The notes: generated by a model not told the origin, from the sequence alone. A stretch of DNA of 64,000 nucleotides from Deltaproteobacteria bacterium (GCA_018433085.1 JAHDRW010000028.1:4804-68803); one strand, 5' to 3'; counted from the first letter of the stretch, positions 55,607 through 63,350 are shown. A program made the numbers and translations.

Positions 55607-55828
55607 CGGTCATTGTAGTATAGAAGATAGCCAGGGGAAACACCAATGATGAGATACTCCGGCGACCGGAAGCGCCCTTTCCCCGGGCAGAAGGATGAGG
55701 CCCCTGGACAATTATCGGCAGAAGGACACGGCGCACTTGTTTTTTATTAGTTATTCAACTAAATTAAATATTGACAACCCCGGCGGGATTCATAATTAGT
55801 CATGTGACTAATATTGAAGGAGGTTGCC

Positions 55829-56941
55829 ATGAAGGTTGGTGTCCCCAGGGAGATCAAGGAGCGTGAAGGGAGGGTTGCCATAACCCCGGCAGGGGTGTCG
55901 GCGCTGACCGGCCACGGGCATGTGGTGTATGTGGAGAAGGGCGCCGGGGCGGGCTCAGGCATAACGGACGAGGCCTTTGAAAAGGCGGGTGCGTTCATGG
56001 CCTCGGATTCCGAGTCCCTCTGGGATTCCTCAGAAATGATCGTCAAGGTCAAGGAGCCCGTGGAAGCGGAGTTCGAGCGGATGCGCGAGGGGCAGGTCCT
56101 CTTTACCTACCTGCATCTCGCCGCATCGGAAAAACTGACGGACAAGCTTCTCGAGCGTGGGATCATCGGGATTGCATACGAGACCATCCAGCTCGAGGAC
56201 GGTTCGCTCCCCCTGCTGGCACCCATGAGCGCCGTGGCCGGAAGGTTGTCCATTCAGGTCGGGTGCGCATGCCTGGAGGCGAAAAACAGGGGCAAGGGCA
56301 TCCTGCTCTCGGGTGTCCCCGGGGTGCATCCCGGCAAGGTCACCATCCTGGGCGGAGGCATTTCCGGCCTTAACGCGGCACACCTGGCCGCGGGCATGGG
56401 TGCCCTGGTCACCTTGCTGGACATCAGCCAGAAAAGGCTCGGCTACCTTTCCGACCTCTTCCACTCACGGGCCGTCACCCTCATGTCAACCCCTGCCAAT
56501 GTGGAACGGAGCGTGGTGGAGGCGGACCTGGTCATCGGCTCAGTTCTCGTCCCGGGGGCAAAAGCTCCCCATCTCATCACCCGGGAGCTCCTCAGGAAGA
56601 TGGAACCAGGGTCCGCCCTGGTGGACATCGCCATAGACCAGGGAGGGTGTGCCGAAACGAGCAGGCCCACCACCCACGACAATCCAGTCTACATCGAAGA
56701 GAACATTGTGCATTATTGCGTGTCCAACATGCCCGGCGCGGTGCCCCGTACCTCCACCCAGGCACTGACCAATGTGTCTCTGCCCTATGTGGTGGAACTG
56801 GCGAACAAAGGATGGCCCAGGGCCCTGCGGGAGAACAGCGCCCTGGCAAAGGGGCTGAACGTCATGAAGGGGAGCCTCGCCAACAGGAAGGTGGCCGAGG
56901 CTTTCGACCGGGAGTATACCGACTGCCGGTCGCTCCTGTAA
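55829..56941 (+). CDS. ald: Alanine dehydrogenase
   Basis: MKVGVPREIKEREGRVAITPAGV N-terminus, VTILGGGISGLNAAHLAAGMGA Rossmann, about 370 aa. RBS GGAGG. Confidence 0.8.
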   Translation: MKVGVPREIKEREGRVAITPAGVSALTGHGHVVYVEKGAGAGSGITDEAFEKAGAFMASDSESLWDSSEMIVKVKEPVEAEFERMREGQVLFTYLHLAASEKLTDKLLERGIIGIAYETIQLEDGSLPLLAPMSAVAGRLSIQVGCACLEAKNRGKGILLSGVPGVHPGKVTILGGGISGLNAAHLAAGMGALVTLLDISQKRLGYLSDLFHSRAVTLMSTPANVERSVVEADLVIGSVLVPGAKAPHLITRELLRKMEPGSALVDIAIDQGGCAETSRPTTHDNPVYIEENIVHYCVSNMPGAVPRTSTQALTNVSLPYVVELANKGWPRALRENSALAKGLNVMKGSLANRKVAEAFDREYTDCRSLL

Positions 56942-57218
56942 AGGCTGTATGCCTGAGCGGGAGCACACCGACCGTGGCTCGGCGGGACGATCTGTGGGCA
57001 GGTGCCCGCCCGGACAGGAGGCACCGGTTCCCGGGTGAGCATTGGTGGAGCCGGCATCGGTTCCTGCGCCCCGGGGCGCAGGTTGAACATGTGCGTGGAA
57101 CGGTTCCAGTGTCTGTGCTGGGCCGGATATTTCATGAACGGGGAGGTTTGCAGTGGAATATTGTCAGGAAACGGCATTCCTAAACGCGGTCATATGGGCG
57201 GGCAGTCCCATCAGGAAA

Positions 57219-58790
57219 ATGCAGGGAACCATGCGGATCGGGGGCGGGAAGATCCTGGGTATTGCCGCAAACGGACAGGCCCCGGGTGATGACCGGGATG
57301 CCCGGGACCTCACGGGAAGGCACATCATCCCCGGGCTCATCGACGCGCACCGGCATTTTTTCATATCAGCGCTTATCGCCCGGCACCGGGACGCGGGCGG
57401 ATGGAAGTCCAAATCCGATGCCCTGGACGCCATCCGTGAGGCGTGCCGCGGGGACCGGTCACCGGCCGGGTGGGTGTTTTTCTCGCGCATGGATCATACG
57501 AAGTGGAAGAATCCCGTACTGCCCACCTTAAGAGAGATGGACGCCATAGCCGGGTCGCGGCCGGTATTCGTTACGGACCTTACGCTGCACCGGTCGCTGG
57601 CTTCCACCGAGGCGATGCGGCGTGCGCAGCTCAGCAGGGATAGTCTCCGCTTTGCCGGGGACATGGATGTCCGCCGAAACGGCGAGCTCAAGGGCACCGT
57701 GTGGGAGGAGGCCCTTGGCAGAATTCTGTCCACCATGTACCGGGAGACGCTCCGGCATGCAACCGGGCAGGAAAAGCGGGAGATCATCCTCCAGGAGGCG
57801 AGCCGGTGCATCCGGATGGGTATCACCCATGTCCATGACCCGGGTGTCTCTTCCGACGTGCAGGTTCTCCTGGACGACGCGGGCAGGCATACCCCCCTGA
57901 AAATCAGCTGGGCGGTCGCTTCCGGGCAGTGCCTGTATACGCCGCCGTGCAGCGATGACGAGGCCGAGGCCGTCCATTCCCCCCATGCTCCCAGGAGCGT
58001 GAAATTCTTCCTGGACGGAGCCCATCGCACCGCGGCCAGCATGCCGGTCATGGCGGGCCTCAAGGCAACGATCCGGGCGGGGTTCGACAGCGTGTCCCAG
58101 ATGAACCTCGCCCCCGTGAAGCTCCTGCTCGAGCAGAAGATTCTCCTGAAGGGCGGGCGTCTGGTCATGCCGTATCTGCGGTTCGAAGATGCCCGTGATC
58201 TCCAGAAGCGGGCATCCGTGTTCTCCGAAAAAGGCTACCGGCTGGTGATTCACGCACTGGGAAATGTGGCCGTCCGGCAGGCGGCCGAGCTCATCAGGAC
58301 GATCCGGCCCGCCGGCGGTGCTTCGGTGGAGCACCTGCTCGTCATGGACGACGAAGACCTGGACATATTCGCCGGATGCGGGGCCGTGGCGTCGGTCCAG
58401 CCGGGCTTCATTCCCGGGTACGCCGAGACCATCGAGCGCATGGGGGCCATACCTTATCTGAAAACCTTTGCCCTGGGCAGCATGAAAAGGCGGGGCATCC
58501 CTGTCTGCATCAGTTCGGATGGACCCTGCGGGCCGGACGATCCCCTGTACAACGCCAGAAGGGCCGCAGACCGGAGAAAACCCGACGGCACCATGCTGGA
58601 TCCCGACGAACGGCTTTCCCAAGAAGACGCCCTGGCCGCCGCCAGCATCGGGGGAAGTCTCTCCATGGGCATGGCCAATGGGGGGCTGTGCACGGGAGCA
58701 CCTGCAACGTTCTGCGTGGTGGACGGAGACCCCTTCTCCGATGCGAGCCGCGTGATCCAGACCTGGATCGACGGGGTGAGGGTATATTGA
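57219..58790 (+). CDS. Amidohydrolase (Amidohydro_3 family)
   Basis: IIPGLIDAHRHF metal-binding motif. C-terminal SSDGPCGPDDPL and long insertion typical of Amidohydro_3. Start uncertain (57219 or 57231). Confidence 0.7.
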   Translation: MQGTMRIGGGKILGIAANGQAPGDDRDARDLTGRHIIPGLIDAHRHFFISALIARHRDAGGWKSKSDALDAIREACRGDRSPAGWVFFSRMDHTKWKNPVLPTLREMDAIAGSRPVFVTDLTLHRSLASTEAMRRAQLSRDSLRFAGDMDVRRNGELKGTVWEEALGRILSTMYRETLRHATGQEKREIILQEASRCIRMGITHVHDPGVSSDVQVLLDDAGRHTPLKISWAVASGQCLYTPPCSDDEAEAVHSPHAPRSVKFFLDGAHRTAASMPVMAGLKATIRAGFDSVSQMNLAPVKLLLEQKILLKGGRLVMPYLRFEDARDLQKRASVFSEKGYRLVIHALGNVAVRQAAELIRTIRPAGGASVEHLLVMDDEDLDIFAGCGAVASVQPGFIPGYAETIERMGAIPYLKTFALGSMKRRGIPVCISSDGPCGPDDPLYNARRAADRRKPDGTMLDPDERLSQEDALAAASIGGSLSMGMANGGLCTGAPATFCVVDGDPFSDASRVIQTWIDGVRVY

Positions 58791-58856
58791 GGTAAAGTGA
58801 ACAGTGGAGTGGCAATAAACCATGCGTGAGAAAATCATGCAGTGAAGGAGGATTGT

Positions 58857-60260
58857 ATGGGATACAGCGGGTGTAGGAAAATGGATGTCCAGGAGCGTGA
58901 CTATGTCCAGCACCTTTTCGGCAGGCATATCTCCAGAGGCCAGGTGAGATACCTGAGGTGCGCGCACCTGGATATCTATGAGCGCGACCGGCAGGGCTGC
59001 ACGGTGACGGATGCGGTTTCGGGGAAGCGATTCTTCGACTGCTTCAGCTCCGCCGGGTGCTTCAACGTGGGCAGGGGCAACCCGAAGATCAGGGAGACCC
59101 TGGAGAGAGCCCTGGACGACTGGGACATGGGGTCGCACCGGATGCTCTCGGAGCCCAAGATCAGGTTTGCGGAGAAGCTTGCATCGCTCTGTCCGGGCGA
59201 CCTCAAGAAGGTGGTGCTCTGCGCGACGGGCGCGGACGCGTGTGCGGCGGCCATAAAGCTGGCCAAGGGCGCCACGGGCAGGAACGACGTGATCACCATG
59301 GACAAGGCGTACCACGGGCACGAGGGCTTCAGCCTTTCCGCCAACGGCAAAGACTACTACAAGGAGCTGTTTCTGCCCCTGATGCCGGGATTCCACGTCG
59401 TTCCGTTCAACGACCTGGAGGCGGTAAGGAAGGTGGCGTCAAAGGACACCGCAGCCATCGTGCTGGAGCCGGTGCAGGGTGAGGGCGGCATTCACGTGGC
59501 CACCCGGGAGTTCATGAACGGCTTGAGGAAGCTTTGCGACGAACTGGGCATCATGCTCATCTTCGACGAAGTCCAGACCGGCTTCGGCCGTACGGGCAAG
59601 CTATGGGGGATGGAGCACTATGGGCTTGTCCCGGACATCATGTTCATCGCCAAGTCAATCAGCGGTGGGTTCTACCCCAACGGCGCGGTGGTCTACCGTG
59701 ATACTGAACGACTCACCGGCTACGTGGAACAGAATCCCCTTTTTCACTCATCCCACTCGGGCGGATCGGACTTGGGCTGCATCGTTTCCTCGGCCGTGTT
59801 GGACTACCTGGCCGAGAACAAGGTCTGGGACCACGCGGCAGAGATCGGGGCGCGGTTCAAGGAAGGGCTCATGGAAATATGGAGGGAAAACAGCCACGTG
59901 GTTCGGGAGGTGAGGGGGCTCGGCCTCATGATCGGCATTGAGTACAAATACGAGTTCCTGGGCGCGCTCATGGCCGACTGTCTGGCAAAGCAGGGCGTCT
60001 GGGCGGTGTACTCGGGCAACGCCCCGCAGGTCATGCGATTCCAGATCCCCGTCACCGCCGCCATGGACGAGGTGGAGGAGCTCCTGGCCCGCATCAGGGC
60101 CGCGGTGGACTCCATGAAGATATACCTGGTTCTTCTCCTTCCTCTGGCGAAGGTTCCCCTGTTCCGAATGGCTCTCGACAACCTGAAGGTGCAGATCATC
60201 GCATTCAACCTCGTGCGGGATCTGGAAGAGTTCGTCTTCAAGTATGTACTGAAGCGGTAA
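58857..60260 (+). CDS. Class-III PLP aminotransferase (divergent subfamily)
   Basis: LIFDEVQTGFGRTG, FIAKSISGG (PLP lysine present). GHxHP is replaced by GRGNP. RBS GGAGG. Confidence 0.75.
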   Translation: MGYSGCRKMDVQERDYVQHLFGRHISRGQVRYLRCAHLDIYERDRQGCTVTDAVSGKRFFDCFSSAGCFNVGRGNPKIRETLERALDDWDMGSHRMLSEPKIRFAEKLASLCPGDLKKVVLCATGADACAAAIKLAKGATGRNDVITMDKAYHGHEGFSLSANGKDYYKELFLPLMPGFHVVPFNDLEAVRKVASKDTAAIVLEPVQGEGGIHVATREFMNGLRKLCDELGIMLIFDEVQTGFGRTGKLWGMEHYGLVPDIMFIAKSISGGFYPNGAVVYRDTERLTGYVEQNPLFHSSHSGGSDLGCIVSSAVLDYLAENKVWDHAAEIGARFKEGLMEIWRENSHVVREVRGLGLMIGIEYKYEFLGALMADCLAKQGVWAVYSGNAPQVMRFQIPVTAAMDEVEELLARIRAAVDSMKIYLVLLLPLAKVPLFRMALDNLKVQIIAFNLVRDLEEFVFKYVLKR

Positions 60261-60273
60261 GGGAGGTGCGGAA

Positions 60274-61536
60274 ATGAAAAAGGCAGTTTCGACCAAACAA
60301 ACGGACAGGGACACGAAACAGACCGACAGGGACAATCTCTTTGCAGCAGCGGAGCGGGTGTTTTCCAAAAGTTTTGTGGATGATATCCGGAGCAGGGGGC
60401 ATGGCTTCCTGGAGGCAGGCCGGGAGGGTTCGTATATCTTCGATGAAGAGGGCAACCGGTATCTCGACTGCTTCACTTCAGCCGGGACCTTCAACCTGGG
60501 CAGAAAGAATCCGGCCATAGCGGCGCAGCTTAAAAAGGCACTCTTTGAAACCGACCAGGGCAACTTCGTGATGCCCTCCGAAGAAAAGGCCCTGCTTGCC
60601 AGAAGGATCGCCGAATTTGTGCCTGGCAGTCTGGAGTGCGTCCTCTTCGGGGTGACCAGGGGCGAGTCCATGGATGCGGCCTGCAAGCTCGCCCGGGGGT
60701 TCACGGAGAGGCCTGAGCTCATAACGGTGGACGGAGGGTGCTACGGAGAATCCGGGTTTGCCTTGAGCCTCTCCGCCAGAAAGGGCAAGGAACAGTTCGG
60801 CGCACTGATCCCCGAGGTGAAGGTCGTGCCGTTCGGCGATGCGGATGCGGCACGCTCGGCAATCAGCCCCCGGACAGCGGCCTTCATCATGGAGCCCGTG
60901 CAGGCGGAGAACGGCTGCCGGGAGGCCGAAAAGGCGTACTACGCCCAAATCCGCTCCCTGTGCGACCGGCACGGTGCAAAGCTCATCTTCGATGAAACCC
61001 AGAGCGGTTTCGGGAGAACCGGCGCCCGGTTCTTCTTCGAACACATCGGTGTGGAGCCGGACATCCTCATCGTGGGAGAGGCCATCACCGGAGGCGTCTT
61101 TCCCATGACGGCCATGGTTTTCACCCCTGAGCTCAAGGGGTTTTTCGACATACACCCGCTCATCCATCTCTGCACCTTCGGCGGACACGATCTGGGCTGC
61201 AGGGTGGCCATGACCGCGCTTGACGAGTATGACCGGGAGTGCCCCTGGGGGAACGCCCGGGAAACGGGCGAGAAGCTGATCAAGAACCTGGGAGGGCTGG
61301 CGGGCGGAAACAAGCCCCTGAAGTCGGTGACAGGCAGAGGACTGCTCATCTCGCTCAATTTCGGTGCAGAGGAAACCGCCGGCGCATTCTGTTCCCATGC
61401 GGCAAAGAACGGGCTGTTTGCTGACACCGGCAGGGTGGACGGCTCATGCGTGCTGCTGAGGCCGAGCCTGCTCATAGGCGGGGAAGAGGCGGCCGCTGTC
61501 ACGGATGCGGTGGAGCGCACGCTGAAATCGCTGTAA
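60274..61536 (+). CDS. Class-III aminotransferase paralog lacking the PLP Schiff-base lysine (K to E)
   Basis: LIFDETQSGFGRTG is conserved. IVGEAITGG has Glu where the catalytic Lys sits in the upstream paralog (FIAKSISGG). The N-terminus has an imperfect repeat TDRDTKQTDRD. Confidence 0.7.
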   Translation: MKKAVSTKQTDRDTKQTDRDNLFAAAERVFSKSFVDDIRSRGHGFLEAGREGSYIFDEEGNRYLDCFTSAGTFNLGRKNPAIAAQLKKALFETDQGNFVMPSEEKALLARRIAEFVPGSLECVLFGVTRGESMDAACKLARGFTERPELITVDGGCYGESGFALSLSARKGKEQFGALIPEVKVVPFGDADAARSAISPRTAAFIMEPVQAENGCREAEKAYYAQIRSLCDRHGAKLIFDETQSGFGRTGARFFFEHIGVEPDILIVGEAITGGVFPMTAMVFTPELKGFFDIHPLIHLCTFGGHDLGCRVAMTALDEYDRECPWGNARETGEKLIKNLGGLAGGNKPLKSVTGRGLLISLNFGAEETAGAFCSHAAKNGLFADTGRVDGSCVLLRPSLLIGGEEAAAVTDAVERTLKSL

Positions 61537-61574
61537 TCAGATCCTCGGGCAAACCACGTACCGGCATACCAGAA

Positions 61575-61617
61575 GGGGGGGCAACTTCACTTCAGGTCCC
61601 CCCCCTTCCCGCTTTTC
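61575..61617 (+). terminator. Rho-independent terminator after the aminotransferase pair
   Basis: GGGGGGG-loop-CCCCCCC followed by TTCCCGCTTTTCC. Confidence 0.5.
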
Positions 61618-61692
61618 CTCCGAGAGCGGAACCCCGAGCCCGGAGGGCCACGGGCGACCGTGATCCGGTCCTGTTGATTCACAGGGAGTAAT

Positions 61693-62331
61693 GTGCCATA
61701 CTCTGGGGCACTGATAGCACCGGAGAAAGGTGGCCGAATCGTGGCAAGGAAACCGGTACGGGAAGAGCGGAAAAAGCAGATACTCAAGGCGCTGGACCAG
61801 TGCCTTCGGGAGAAATCCTTTCAGAAGACCTCCATCAAGGATATCTCCCGGGTTGCTGGCGTAAACCACGGTGTGCTGCACTATTATTTCGCGAACAAGG
61901 AAGACATCCTCCTGCAGTATATCGATTACGTGGTGAAGGACTTCAAATCGCAGATGCAGGAGCTGACGGCATCCGGAAACATGCCAGGCATGTCGCAGGC
62001 CGATTTCGTCAGGGAGGTCTTCGGCTTCGTGAACCACAGGATCACGCTCGACCGGAATCTCTCGAAGATCTTCGTGGAGATCTGGGAGATCGGGCTGTAT
62101 AATGATGCGGTGCGCGCAAAACTGCGGCAGGCGTATGTCGAGTGGATTCAGACCCTGGCCGGGAATATCGGCGGCGGCTCGACGGACACGGATGCCGCGT
62201 CCGTCATGAGTGTCGCCATGGTTGCCTTCTGGGAGGGAATGGCGCTGCTCTCCACGGTATTCGAAAACGGGGAGATACGGTTCGAAGAGGTCCTTGAGAG
62301 ATTTCAGCAGCAGATCATCGAGATTCTGTAA
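61693..62331 (+). CDS. TetR/AcrR-family transcriptional regulator
   Basis: N-terminal HTH KTSIKDISRVAGVNHGVLHYYFANKEDI. Confidence 0.75.
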   Translation: MPYSGALIAPEKGGRIVARKPVREERKKQILKALDQCLREKSFQKTSIKDISRVAGVNHGVLHYYFANKEDILLQYIDYVVKDFKSQMQELTASGNMPGMSQADFVREVFGFVNHRITLDRNLSKIFVEIWEIGLYNDAVRAKLRQAYVEWIQTLAGNIGGGSTDTDAASVMSVAMVAFWEGMALLSTVFENGEIRFEEVLERFQQQIIEIL

Positions 62332-62489
62332 AATGTTTCCGGCCTCCACCGGCCCATGCCGGGGACGGGTGAGATGATCCGCCCGCCCGTTTCTTCTCGG
62401 GCCGGCGGGTTGTGGTGCTGTTCATGGAATTGGGGCACGGGGAAAGGGGATGCCCTTCCCCCTCTCTCCCGCGCCGGATGAAGGTATGG

Positions 62490-63350
62490 CTACAGAGGAT
62501 AGAATCTGACCTGGAGCAGCTTTGCCCCGTTGTTGTCCATGTTCCAGAGATAGTCGACGTAATCTCCGATGTTAAACACCCACTCGTTCAGATACTCCAT
62601 GCAGTAGACCGGAGTCCCTTCGCACAGGGAATCCTCGGTCATGGGGGAGCACTCGTCGAATATCCCGTCTGAGTCCAGGTCCACACAGCAGGAATCCGGC
62701 GGCGTGAACTCGTCGGGGGCGGTGAGATAGCAGACGCTTCCCGACCATTGGAACAGACCGGTGATATCGGTTGCCCGGGACTTTCCCGAGGTGCGGACAA
62801 AGCTGGCAGAGGTCGTCAGGAAGCCCCTGTCCGTGACCAGGCCGAGATAGAGCAGGTCGTTGCCGAACTCATCCTGCACCATGACGAACCCGGGGTCGTA
62901 GATCTCGATGGTTCTGAGATCGCCGGTATCTTTCGAGGGTTTTCCCAGGACCCGGGCATAGACCCGGTAGCCGTTCTTGTTTTTCGGCAGGCGCAGGGTC
63001 GCGGGATCGTTCGGGGTAAAGCCGGTGCAGGTATCCGTCACCTGCAGCCCCGTTACATCGGGTGCGCTCTTGGGACCCTTCTTGCCCGATTCCATGACGA
63101 TCTGCACATTATACTCAGGATATTCCGGCATGAAGATAACGTTTCCATAGACCGGGTCGCCATACTCGTCACAGGAGACACCGGGGCAGGAGAAGTCGCC
63201 TTTCTTGGCGATGATGGTGAGATTGAAGTGCCCGCCCGAGGGGAATCCGTTGGGGTTGACCTCGCTGCCCGGTCCGGTGCAGTGCGCATAGCCGGTAATG
63301 AGGAGAATCAGTACGCATGCCAGGATTGCCTCTTTTATCAGCTTGCCCAT
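62490..63350 (-). CDS. Secreted cysteine-rich hypothetical protein
   Basis: Signal peptide, 12+ Cys, no recognisable family. RBS AAGGAGG. Confidence 0.45.
   Translation of the reverse strand: MGKLIKEAILACVLILLITGYAHCTGPGSEVNPNGFPSGGHFNLTIIAKKGDFSCPGVSCDEYGDPVYGNVIFMPEYPEYNVQIVMESGKKGPKSAPDVTGLQVTDTCTGFTPNDPATLRLPKNKNGYRVYARVLGKPSKDTGDLRTIEIYDPGFVMVQDEFGNDLLYLGLVTDRGFLTTSASFVRTSGKSRATDITGLFQWSGSVCYLTAPDEFTPPDSCCVDLDSDGIFDECSPMTEDSLCEGTPVYCMEYLNEWVFNIGDYVDYLWNMDNNGAKLLQVRFYPL

Follow-up and report, generated by a model that had tools for sequence, protein, structure and literature searches.

The 64,000-nucleotide (nt) stretch of DNA from a Deltaproteobacteria bacterium (GCA_018433085.1 JAHDRW010000028.1:4804-68803), referred to here as the window, contains a cluster of five genes at positions 55829-62331, i.e., from the ATG of an alanine dehydrogenase gene to the stop codon of a tetR-family gene. 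A preliminary description of this DNA had listed ald, Amidohydro_3, two tandem class III aminotransferases and tetR, and both the gene order and the family assignments were confirmed. The two aminotransferase-fold genes, designated AT1 and AT2, are the main subject of this analysis. The product of the second lacks the lysine that forms the Schiff base with the cofactor pyridoxal 5'-phosphate (PLP), and it is probably the non-catalytic partner of the first. The five genes are as follows.

55829-56941, plus strand: ald, alanine dehydrogenase, 370 amino acids (aa); ATG at 55829, ribosome-binding site (RBS) GAAGGAGG at 55816-55823.
57153-58790, plus strand: Amidohydro_3 metal-dependent hydrolase, 545 aa; PF07969, 161.4 bits; HxH motif 'DAHRH'.
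58857-60260, plus strand: AT1, class III aminotransferase, 467 aa; PF00202, 289.1 bits against a gathering score of 30.5.
60274-61536, plus strand: AT2, class III aminotransferase fold, 420 aa; PF00202, 218.4 bits against 30.5.
61693-62331, plus strand: tetR-family regulator, 212 aa; PF00440 TetR_N, 40.8 bits.

AT1 and AT2 share 37% sequence identity. The start codon of AT2 lies 13 nt past the stop codon of AT1 and is preceded by the RBS AGGGAGG. AT1 has an alternative in-frame start (GTG 58842) that would give a 472-aa product, and the database copy (P0121) begins at ATG 58857. Residue numbers of AT1 (e.g., Lys271 and His305) refer to the 472-aa form, and the helix ranges given below for its C-terminal extension refer to the 467-aa form.

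Among solved structures as well as NCBIfam models, both proteins come nearest to the E. coli putrescine aminotransferase YgjG (PatA). AT1 aligns with it over almost its whole length (E = 1e-70), although neither protein reaches the cut-offs of the YgjG models: AT1 and AT2 score 296.9 and 217.2 bits for NF008570 (cut-off 612) and 249.5 and 182.4 for TIGR03372 (cut-off 658.65). All three have in common the class III fold with an extra N-terminal helix, a YgjG-type element that in YgjG makes dimer contacts (PMC4244111).

In a HMMER alignment to YgjG (PDB 4uox), Glu269 of AT2 ('IVGEAITGG') aligns with Lys300 ('CLAKALGGG'). The replacement of Lys by Glu at the Schiff-base position, first noticed in the preliminary description, is confirmed by this alignment. 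A genome scan restricted to one genome per species yielded 54 loci. Active sites were mapped on 47 AT1 and 46 AT2 sequences, with wider checks on 121 AT1-type and 120 AT2-type database proteins. The Lys300 column is Glu in 46/46 genomic orthologues of AT2 and in 120/120 database homologues, which are 51-100% identical to it. For pairs with unsaturated synonymous divergence, the ratio of nonsynonymous to synonymous substitution (dN/dS) is 0.085-0.18 in AT2, against 0.056-0.13 in AT1; AT2 is under purifying selection. Its AlphaFold2 model has a mean predicted local distance difference test (pLDDT) score of 88.6, and Foldseek superimposes it on 4uox over the whole chain with a template-modelling (TM) score of 0.91 and a root-mean-square deviation of 2.0 Å. 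An inactive paralogue is classically recognised by the loss of its catalytic lysine, and AT2 could on that ground be taken for a decaying duplicate or pseudogene, or its Glu codon for an assembly error. Such an explanation is scarcely credible, since Glu is found throughout sequences from several phyla, dN/dS is low, the reading frame is intact, the RBS is strong and the fold is confidently predicted. Together, the Glu conservation, the low dN/dS and the confident fold model mark AT2 as a complete class III-fold protein that is maintained by selection, so that neither truncation nor misassembly accounts for it. The sequencing error at Glu269 that the preliminary description had allowed for is excluded by this conservation.

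The active site of YgjG is built from both subunits of its dimer. Lys300 is the Schiff-base lysine. Gly150 and Thr151, together with Thr332 of the partner subunit, hold the PLP phosphate; the ring nitrogen is bound by Asp271, and the ring itself is sandwiched between Phe180 and Val273. Glu243, Gln274 and Arg426 show strict conservation, and the cleft entrance is shaped by Phe327, again from the partner subunit (PMC4244111). The equivalent positions in the two orthologue families are given below in YgjG numbering.

Gly150, PLP phosphate, same subunit: Gly invariant in AT1; Arg in AT2 (46/46).
Thr151, PLP phosphate, same subunit: Ala in AT1 (45/47); Gly in AT2 (46/46).
Phe180, ring stacking: Tyr invariant in AT1; C/W/S/L in AT2.
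Val273, ring stacking: V/I in AT1; T/S in AT2.
Gln274, conserved Gln: Gln invariant in AT1; Gln in AT2 (42/46).
Lys300, Schiff base: Lys invariant in AT1; Glu in AT2 (46/46).
Arg426, carboxylate binding: Arg invariant in AT1; L/V/I in AT2.
Phe327, cleft entrance, from the partner: variable in AT1 (L/E/D/F); Leu in AT2 (46/46).
Thr332, PLP phosphate, from the partner: H/S/L/M in AT1; Thr in AT2 (46/46).

Lys271, Gly130, Tyr157, Asp242, Gln245, Glu214 and Arg399 of AT1 are invariant among the 47 orthologues, and the Lys, Gly and Asp columns are also invariant among the 121 database proteins. AT1 conserves the YgjG Glu243/Arg426 pair, Asp271 and Gln274. In AT2, the phosphate-loop Gly is replaced by Arg129, also in 120/120 homologues, and the carboxylate Arg by Leu394 (column L/V/I). 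The residues that reach across the interface show the reverse pattern: Thr301 of AT2, the equivalent of Thr332, is present in 119/120 AT2-type proteins, and Leu296, the equivalent of Phe327, in 120/120. AT1 has His305 at the partner-donated Thr, in a column that holds H/S/F/L/Y/M/Q/P and is Thr in none of the 121 AT1-type proteins. Judged from the alignments, this loss in AT1 is exceptional, because the same column is Thr or Ser in 142/144 aligned nearest representatives; it would be explained if AT2 supplied that Thr. The simplest reading of this pattern, with the same-subunit PLP residues kept by AT1 and the cross-interface residues by AT2, would be a heterodimer with one working site.

The genomic distribution of the pair is consistent with this reading. 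The loci come from Desulfobacterota (Desulfomonilia, Syntrophaceae, Desulfosudis and Desulfarculus), Spirochaetota/Leptospirales, SAR324 and Bacteroidales. Wherever both genes are full length (41 loci), AT2 is immediately preceded on its own strand by an AT1 orthologue, and the loci without an upstream AT1 are those with contig end cuts or apparent frameshifts. In other genomes, too, the Lys-less family is conserved beside a Lys-containing partner. The gap between the two genes is -4 to +29 nt in 33/41 pairs, six of which have a 4-nt overlap. The pairwise identity matrices of AT1 and AT2 are correlated across 42 genomes (r = 0.93), with AT2 diverging slightly faster (mean identity 57% vs 65% for AT1). 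The pair is also present in the cultured Desulfosudis (Desulfococcus) oleivorans Hxd3, where the order is tetR (divergent), ald, Amidohydro_2, AT1 (ABW66879.1) and AT2. For the Lys-less paralogue, the preliminary description had offered a regulatory subunit, a PLP-independent function or a heterodimer partner; adjacency with tight spacing, the correlation of 0.93 and, above all, the complementary residue loss favor the last of these.

We consider it probable, on the strength of sequence comparison, that AT1 and AT2 are the α and β subunits of an obligate heteromeric YgjG-like class III aminotransferase with an αβ or α2β2 composition. What the analysis shows is the linkage of the genes, the residue patterns, purifying selection, a predicted fold and a conserved operator, whereas the physical complex, its single active site, pyruvate as the amino acceptor and the kind of substrate are inferred. 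Each αβ dimer would contain one working PLP site. To this site AT1 would supply the Schiff-base Lys271, the phosphate loop (Gly130/Ala131), Tyr157 and Val244 around the ring, Asp242, Gln245 and the Glu214/Arg399 pair, while AT2 would supply Thr301 to the PLP phosphate, Leu296 to the cleft entrance and probably Phe98 from across the dimer interface. The reciprocal site, consisting of AT2's own residues and the cross-interface loop of AT1, would be dismantled on both sides, and AT2 would act as a structural, substrate-shaping pseudo-subunit rather than as an enzyme.

AT1 has a C-terminal extension of ~40-45 residues (60124-60257, residues ~423-467) that is present in all orthologues and absent from AT2 and YgjG. 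Its consensus is YLxxLxPLAxxPxxRxxLDNxxVQIxxFNxxRDxEE, and three helices are predicted (403-431, 434-441 and 443-464), with confidence dropping toward the end. As a guess, this extension may clasp AT2.

The residues that line the AT1 cleft give some indication of the substrate. At the position whose Arg binds the substrate carboxylate in OAT, GABA-AT and AcOAT, AT1 has neither Arg nor Lys but an invariant His. It has His at YgjG Lys183, and Ala, Gly and Ala at the cleft-narrowing Phe91, Leu419 and Tyr402. Because of the His at the carboxylate position and the small residues at the cleft, the substrate of AT1 might be a non-carboxylated, possibly bulkier amine.

Among the 150 nearest representatives, three others lack the lysine, which is replaced by Arg in P0257 and P0268 (K to R) and by His in P0296 (K to H). 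Each adjoins a Lys-bearing Aminotran_3 gene, with the Lys-less gene first. The three further Lys-less tandem pairs are located as follows.

L057, 552-3061: Lys-less tandem pair.
L058, 3047-5652: Lys-less tandem pair.
L063, 5001-7477: Lys-less tandem pair.

P0257, P0268 and P0296 all keep the partner-donated Thr, and their Lys-bearing partners have E, E and D at that position. These pairs bear on a different explanation, in which AT2 is an independent homodimer with a new lysine-independent chemistry (racemase, lyase or isomerase) that acts a step before or after AT1, the two genes being neighbors only through their common pathway. Tandem paralogues in catabolic operons do often carry out successive steps, and racemases and phospho-lyases are among the solved class III-fold structures that were matched. 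However, an independent AT2 leaves the loss of Thr in AT1 against the invariant Thr in AT2 unexplained, as well as the same complementary pattern in the three further pairs and the frequent 4-nt overlaps. Moreover, its homodimer would carry two sites devoid of the Lys, the phosphate-loop Gly and the carboxylate Arg. This explanation is accordingly very improbable in comparison with an AT1-AT2 heteromer.

At L060 (192-2833), a tandem pair has the Lys and the partner-donated Thr in both proteins, and the downstream protein of the pair, P0256, already has Arg at the phosphate-loop Gly; P0256 groups with the Glu-type subunits in a neighbor-joining tree (96% bootstrap). The L060 pair may be an evolutionary intermediate. 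The canonical relative P0250 is a single gene. In the same tree, the Lys-less subunits form one clade (79% bootstrap). The tree allows no claim on one versus several origins of these subunits, because its deep nodes lack support among the catalytic partners (4-53%). In L058, L059, L063 and L064 the pair follows a DUF6206 (PF19709) gene; in L057, the contig ends within the gene upstream of the pair, for which Pfam gave no match.

To date, a literature search on heteromeric or Lys-less class III aminotransferases and on DUF6206, with most subscription journals outside its reach, has returned only one comparable case, SerTA. Heteromer formation between aminotransferases was listed as poorly understood in a 2022 review (PMC9309667). 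SerTA (Ser4/Ser5) from Serratia sp. ATCC 39006 was published in 2024 as the first heterooligomeric aminotransferase (PMC11726168). Like AT1-AT2, it is encoded by tandem paralogous genes for fold-type I aminotransferases, one product of which lacks the Schiff-base Lys, and complex formation is needed for its activity (PMC11726168), whereas the AT1-AT2 complex is proposed from sequence. There are also differences. SerTA is one of the sugar aminotransferases, and its genes are part of a secondary-metabolite cluster, whereas AT1 and AT2 match only PF00202 and are encoded together with alanine dehydrogenase in a small module under TetR control. The Lys-less chain of SerTA is truncated (~210 residues, mostly the large domain), whereas AT1 and AT2 are both full-length class III proteins, and the catalytic chain, AT1, has the extra C-terminal extension.

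A second parallel is serine palmitoyltransferase, in which two paralogous PLP proteins of fold type I, LCB1 and LCB2, work only as a heterodimer and have one active site between them. LCB1 lacks the Schiff-base Lys and other PLP ligands, yet it is required for the active site. This enzyme differs from AT1-AT2 in that it belongs to the Aminotran_1_2 family (α-oxoamine synthase), catalyzes a Claisen condensation, and is eukaryotic and membrane-bound; the two are related by fold type only. YgjG itself is a homodimer with two complete sites, in contrast to AT2, which has no equivalent of Lys300, Gly150 or Arg426. The AT1-AT2 family appears to work like SerTA and LCB1/LCB2 while being a member of neither.

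Taurine-degrading anaerobes have modules of taurine:pyruvate aminotransferase (Tpa) and Ald in which a class III gene is linked to ald. To our knowledge, Tpa has not been described as a heteromer. UniRef names the Hxd3 orthologue of AT1 'Taurine--pyruvate aminotransferase', which is an automatic label only; there was no Tpa model among the best 25 NCBIfam matches, and no sulfoacetaldehyde-processing genes were found in the examined neighborhoods.

The genes that accompany the pair outline its possible metabolic setting. The ald product scores 525.9 bits for TIGR00518 (equivalog cut-off 391.85) and has the AlaDh_PNT_N and AlaDh_PNT_C domains. An ald orthologue is present in the module in 30/54 loci, and tetR is linked in 36/54, either downstream in the same direction or divergent upstream. 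An amidohydrolase-superfamily gene occurs in 26 loci, or ~60% of those with a visible module start. In 13 of them it is Amidohydro_3, and in the other 13 it is a 305-aa Amidohydro_2 (PF04909), to all appearance unrelated, located between ald and AT1 or after AT2. The constant core of the module is AT1 and AT2, and Amidohydro_3 is accessory. The proposal that the operon is catabolic and acts on an N-acylated or amino compound is plausible but has support only in part: Ald and TetR are common partners, whereas Amidohydro_3 is not part of the core. With the Amidohydro_2 genes, another enzyme family seems to have taken over the hydrolytic step. Amidohydro_3 reached no NCBIfam equivalog, its related solved structures being only the uncharacterised hydrolases 3igh and 3icj; for the two amidohydrolases together, solved relatives gave no indication of a substrate, as they are only uncharacterised hydrolases or distant decarboxylases.

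Amidohydro_2 stands in place of Amidohydro_3 in L022, L023, L026, L027, L028, L030, L034, L036, L039-L042 and L047, and Hxd3 (L055, 6958-7935) likewise has the 305-aa Amidohydro_2. Some of these loci have redox genes nearby. Molybdopterin oxidoreductase genes (Fe4S4, Molybdopterin and Molydop_binding) are next to the module in L055 (10663-16281) and in the Spirochaetota locus L028 (8673-11009); in L026 (9289-11802) and L027 (9348-9986 and 12198-14369) the same assignment is by open reading frame (ORF) clustering only. An FMN-reductase/flavodoxin-like gene is found in L027, L055 and L056.

In amine:pyruvate transaminase modules, alanine dehydrogenase recycles pyruvate with release of ammonia and NADH. 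By this analogy, the linkage of ald suggests pyruvate as the amino acceptor. The AT1-AT2 pair would probably move the amino group from a non-carboxylated amine to pyruvate, and Ald would then regenerate pyruvate and release NH4+ and NADH. The amidohydrolase (Amidohydro_3 here and Amidohydro_2 elsewhere) would probably free or process the amine.

The region upstream of ald contains two overlapping features.

55771-55798, plus strand: tentative promoter-like region before ald; TTGACA at 55771-55776 and an A/T-rich -10-like element CATAATTA at 55791-55798.
55795-55812: putative TetR operator ATTAGTCATGTGACTAAT, a perfect 18-bp palindrome found by an inverted-repeat search, with imperfect arms extending to 55789-55818.

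The promoter-like region was not called by the consensus scan, owing to its spacer of 14-16 nt. The palindrome ATTAGTCATGTGACTAAT, which overlaps the -10-like region, occurs nowhere else in the 64-kb window, where chance would give 0.05 matches. A TAGTCA-N2-TGACTA-like site is present within -200 to +60 of the first module gene in 24/43 related loci across phyla, against 0.006 expected from the background density. This palindrome is likely the operator of the linked TetR, whose product is a probable repressor of the module. Since the operator is conserved near the first module gene, the module appears to be a conserved TetR-controlled unit; TetR bound to the promoter palindrome would keep it off until a ligand arrives.

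Several observations weigh against a single-site AT1-AT2 heteromer that transfers amino groups to pyruvate. On the metabolic side, roughly a third of the loci have no ald in the module, the linkage of ald is the only basis for pyruvate as the acceptor, and neither a transporter nor an aldehyde-oxidising enzyme or aldehyde dehydrogenase is consistently linked in the examined neighborhoods. On the structural side, the pocket of AT2 is itself conserved: among the 120 homologues, Arg129, Glu212, Cys215, Asp240 and Glu269 vary little or not at all, while >90% keep Asn213, Arg216 and Gln243. This could mean that the site still binds something, or it could reflect a salt-bridge network that fills an empty cofactor pocket. 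Lys288 of AT2 (61135-61137) is also invariant in 120/120 homologues. The preliminary description had considered that a lysine elsewhere in the active site might take over; the alignment suggests none, although Lys288 itself has not been placed in three dimensions. The YgjG equivalent of Lys288 is Phe319, which is not among the listed PLP and substrate contacts. Phe98 of AT2 (YgjG Gln119) is almost invariant while its AT1 equivalent varies, and this segment presumably acts across the interface, as in ω-transaminase structures. Finally, covariation between AT1 305 and AT2 128, 156, 214 and 394 (His with Thr128 in 21/22) follows clades and is not counted as evidence.

The conserved pocket leads to another explanation, in which AT2 contains a second functional site (Arg129, Glu269, Asn213, Cys215 and Arg216, with Asp240 and Gln243 retained) and the pair is regulated or bifunctional. 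Such a site might accommodate an allosteric effector, non-covalent pyridoxamine 5'-phosphate (PMP) or PLP, an amino-aldehyde or imine product, or a step that proceeds with no internal aldimine. Conservation of the pocket over 120 homologues down to 51% identity exceeds the need of a decaying site; Asp240 (the pyridine-nitrogen ligand), Glu212 and Gln243 are kept, and an Arg two residues past the lost Arg426 position is present in 118/120 homologues. There are also lysine-free precedents among fold-type I proteins, since the PMP-dependent dehydratases ColD and E1 have His at the lysine position and work in the absence of the lysine. Nevertheless, the phosphate cup is altered on both sides (Gly to Arg in AT2, and Thr to H/S/L/M/F in AT1), the ring-stacking position of AT2 is variable (C/W/S/L), and Glu makes a poor chemical replacement for either Lys or His. 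Furthermore, an Arg129-Glu269 salt bridge in an empty pocket would explain the invariance equally well. A second functional site is thus unlikely, though it deserves more weight than an independent AT2. A related and rather doubtful extension of the heteromer proposal is a recurrent αβ class III architecture in which the β pocket gates the single PLP site or performs a PLP-independent step on an amino-aldehyde or imine.

Class III aminotransferases, including the industrial ω-transaminases, are treated as homodimers with two identical sites. If the heteromer proposal is true, one-sided degeneration into a catalytic and a non-catalytic subunit has occurred in class III too. The AT2 family extends over several phyla and >100 sequence clusters, and its division of labor would be readable from sequence and would recur as K to E, K to R and K to H. 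In that case, automatic annotation, by which both genes encode ordinary aminotransferases, is wrong for AT2, and AT1-like genes expressed alone in enzyme screens may fail. The presence of the pair in cultured Hxd3 makes the prediction directly testable.

Two further properties of the proteins were considered. The motif noted in the preliminary description as atypical, GRGNP/GRKNP, corresponds to a replacement of the first His of GHxxP by Arg in both AT1 and AT2. This Arg is invariant within both orthologue families, but it is not unique to the pair: among the 150 nearest representatives at 50% identity, 103 have His and 20 have Arg in this column. On the alignment evidence, the Arg variant marks a subclade and not the AT1-AT2 pair alone. 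An Fe-S cluster in AT2, considered by analogy with the E1 dehydrase, was rejected; two of the four invariant Cys (Cys230 and Cys309) are common to AT1 and YgjG, and no cluster-type Cys motif was apparent in the AT2 alignments.

The remaining features of the window concern the flanks of the cluster and the 5' end of AT2.

60295-60334, plus strand: 21-nt tandem duplication in the 5' end of AT2; TRF period 21, 1.9 copies, 89% match, score 66.
62366-62395, plus strand: terminator-like hairpin with a T-rich tail 3' of tetR; a consensus match only, at a type of site not enriched relative to shuffled sequence.

Upstream of ald, the genes for an MMPL transporter, a GNAT acetyltransferase and an MBL-fold protein do not look functionally tied to the cluster. 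At the other end, the transcription unit likely ends at the hairpin after tetR (62366-62395). Directly downstream of tetR, at 62490-63350 on the minus strand, lies a 286-aa ORF that is rich in Cys, begins with a hydrophobic stretch and matches no Pfam family. Between AT2 and tetR, the 156-nt spacer contains a G/C-rich inverted repeat (61572-61608) with 15-nt arms that are 87% complementary, a 7-nt loop and no T-run, which could be an attenuator or an RNA-stability element.

The tandem repeat at the 5' end of AT2 is real, although its unit is 21 nt (1.9 copies) and not the 18 nt first given. It encodes TKQTDRD twice, whereas the 13 closest homologues listed (413-415 aa) have a single copy, so that the second copy amounts to an insertion of 7 residues in this genome. 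Residues 1-15 of AT2 have pLDDT values <50 in the AlphaFold2 model, and the repeat lies in this tail, which is predicted to be disordered. The duplication appears to be recent and genome-specific, and it is probably neutral.

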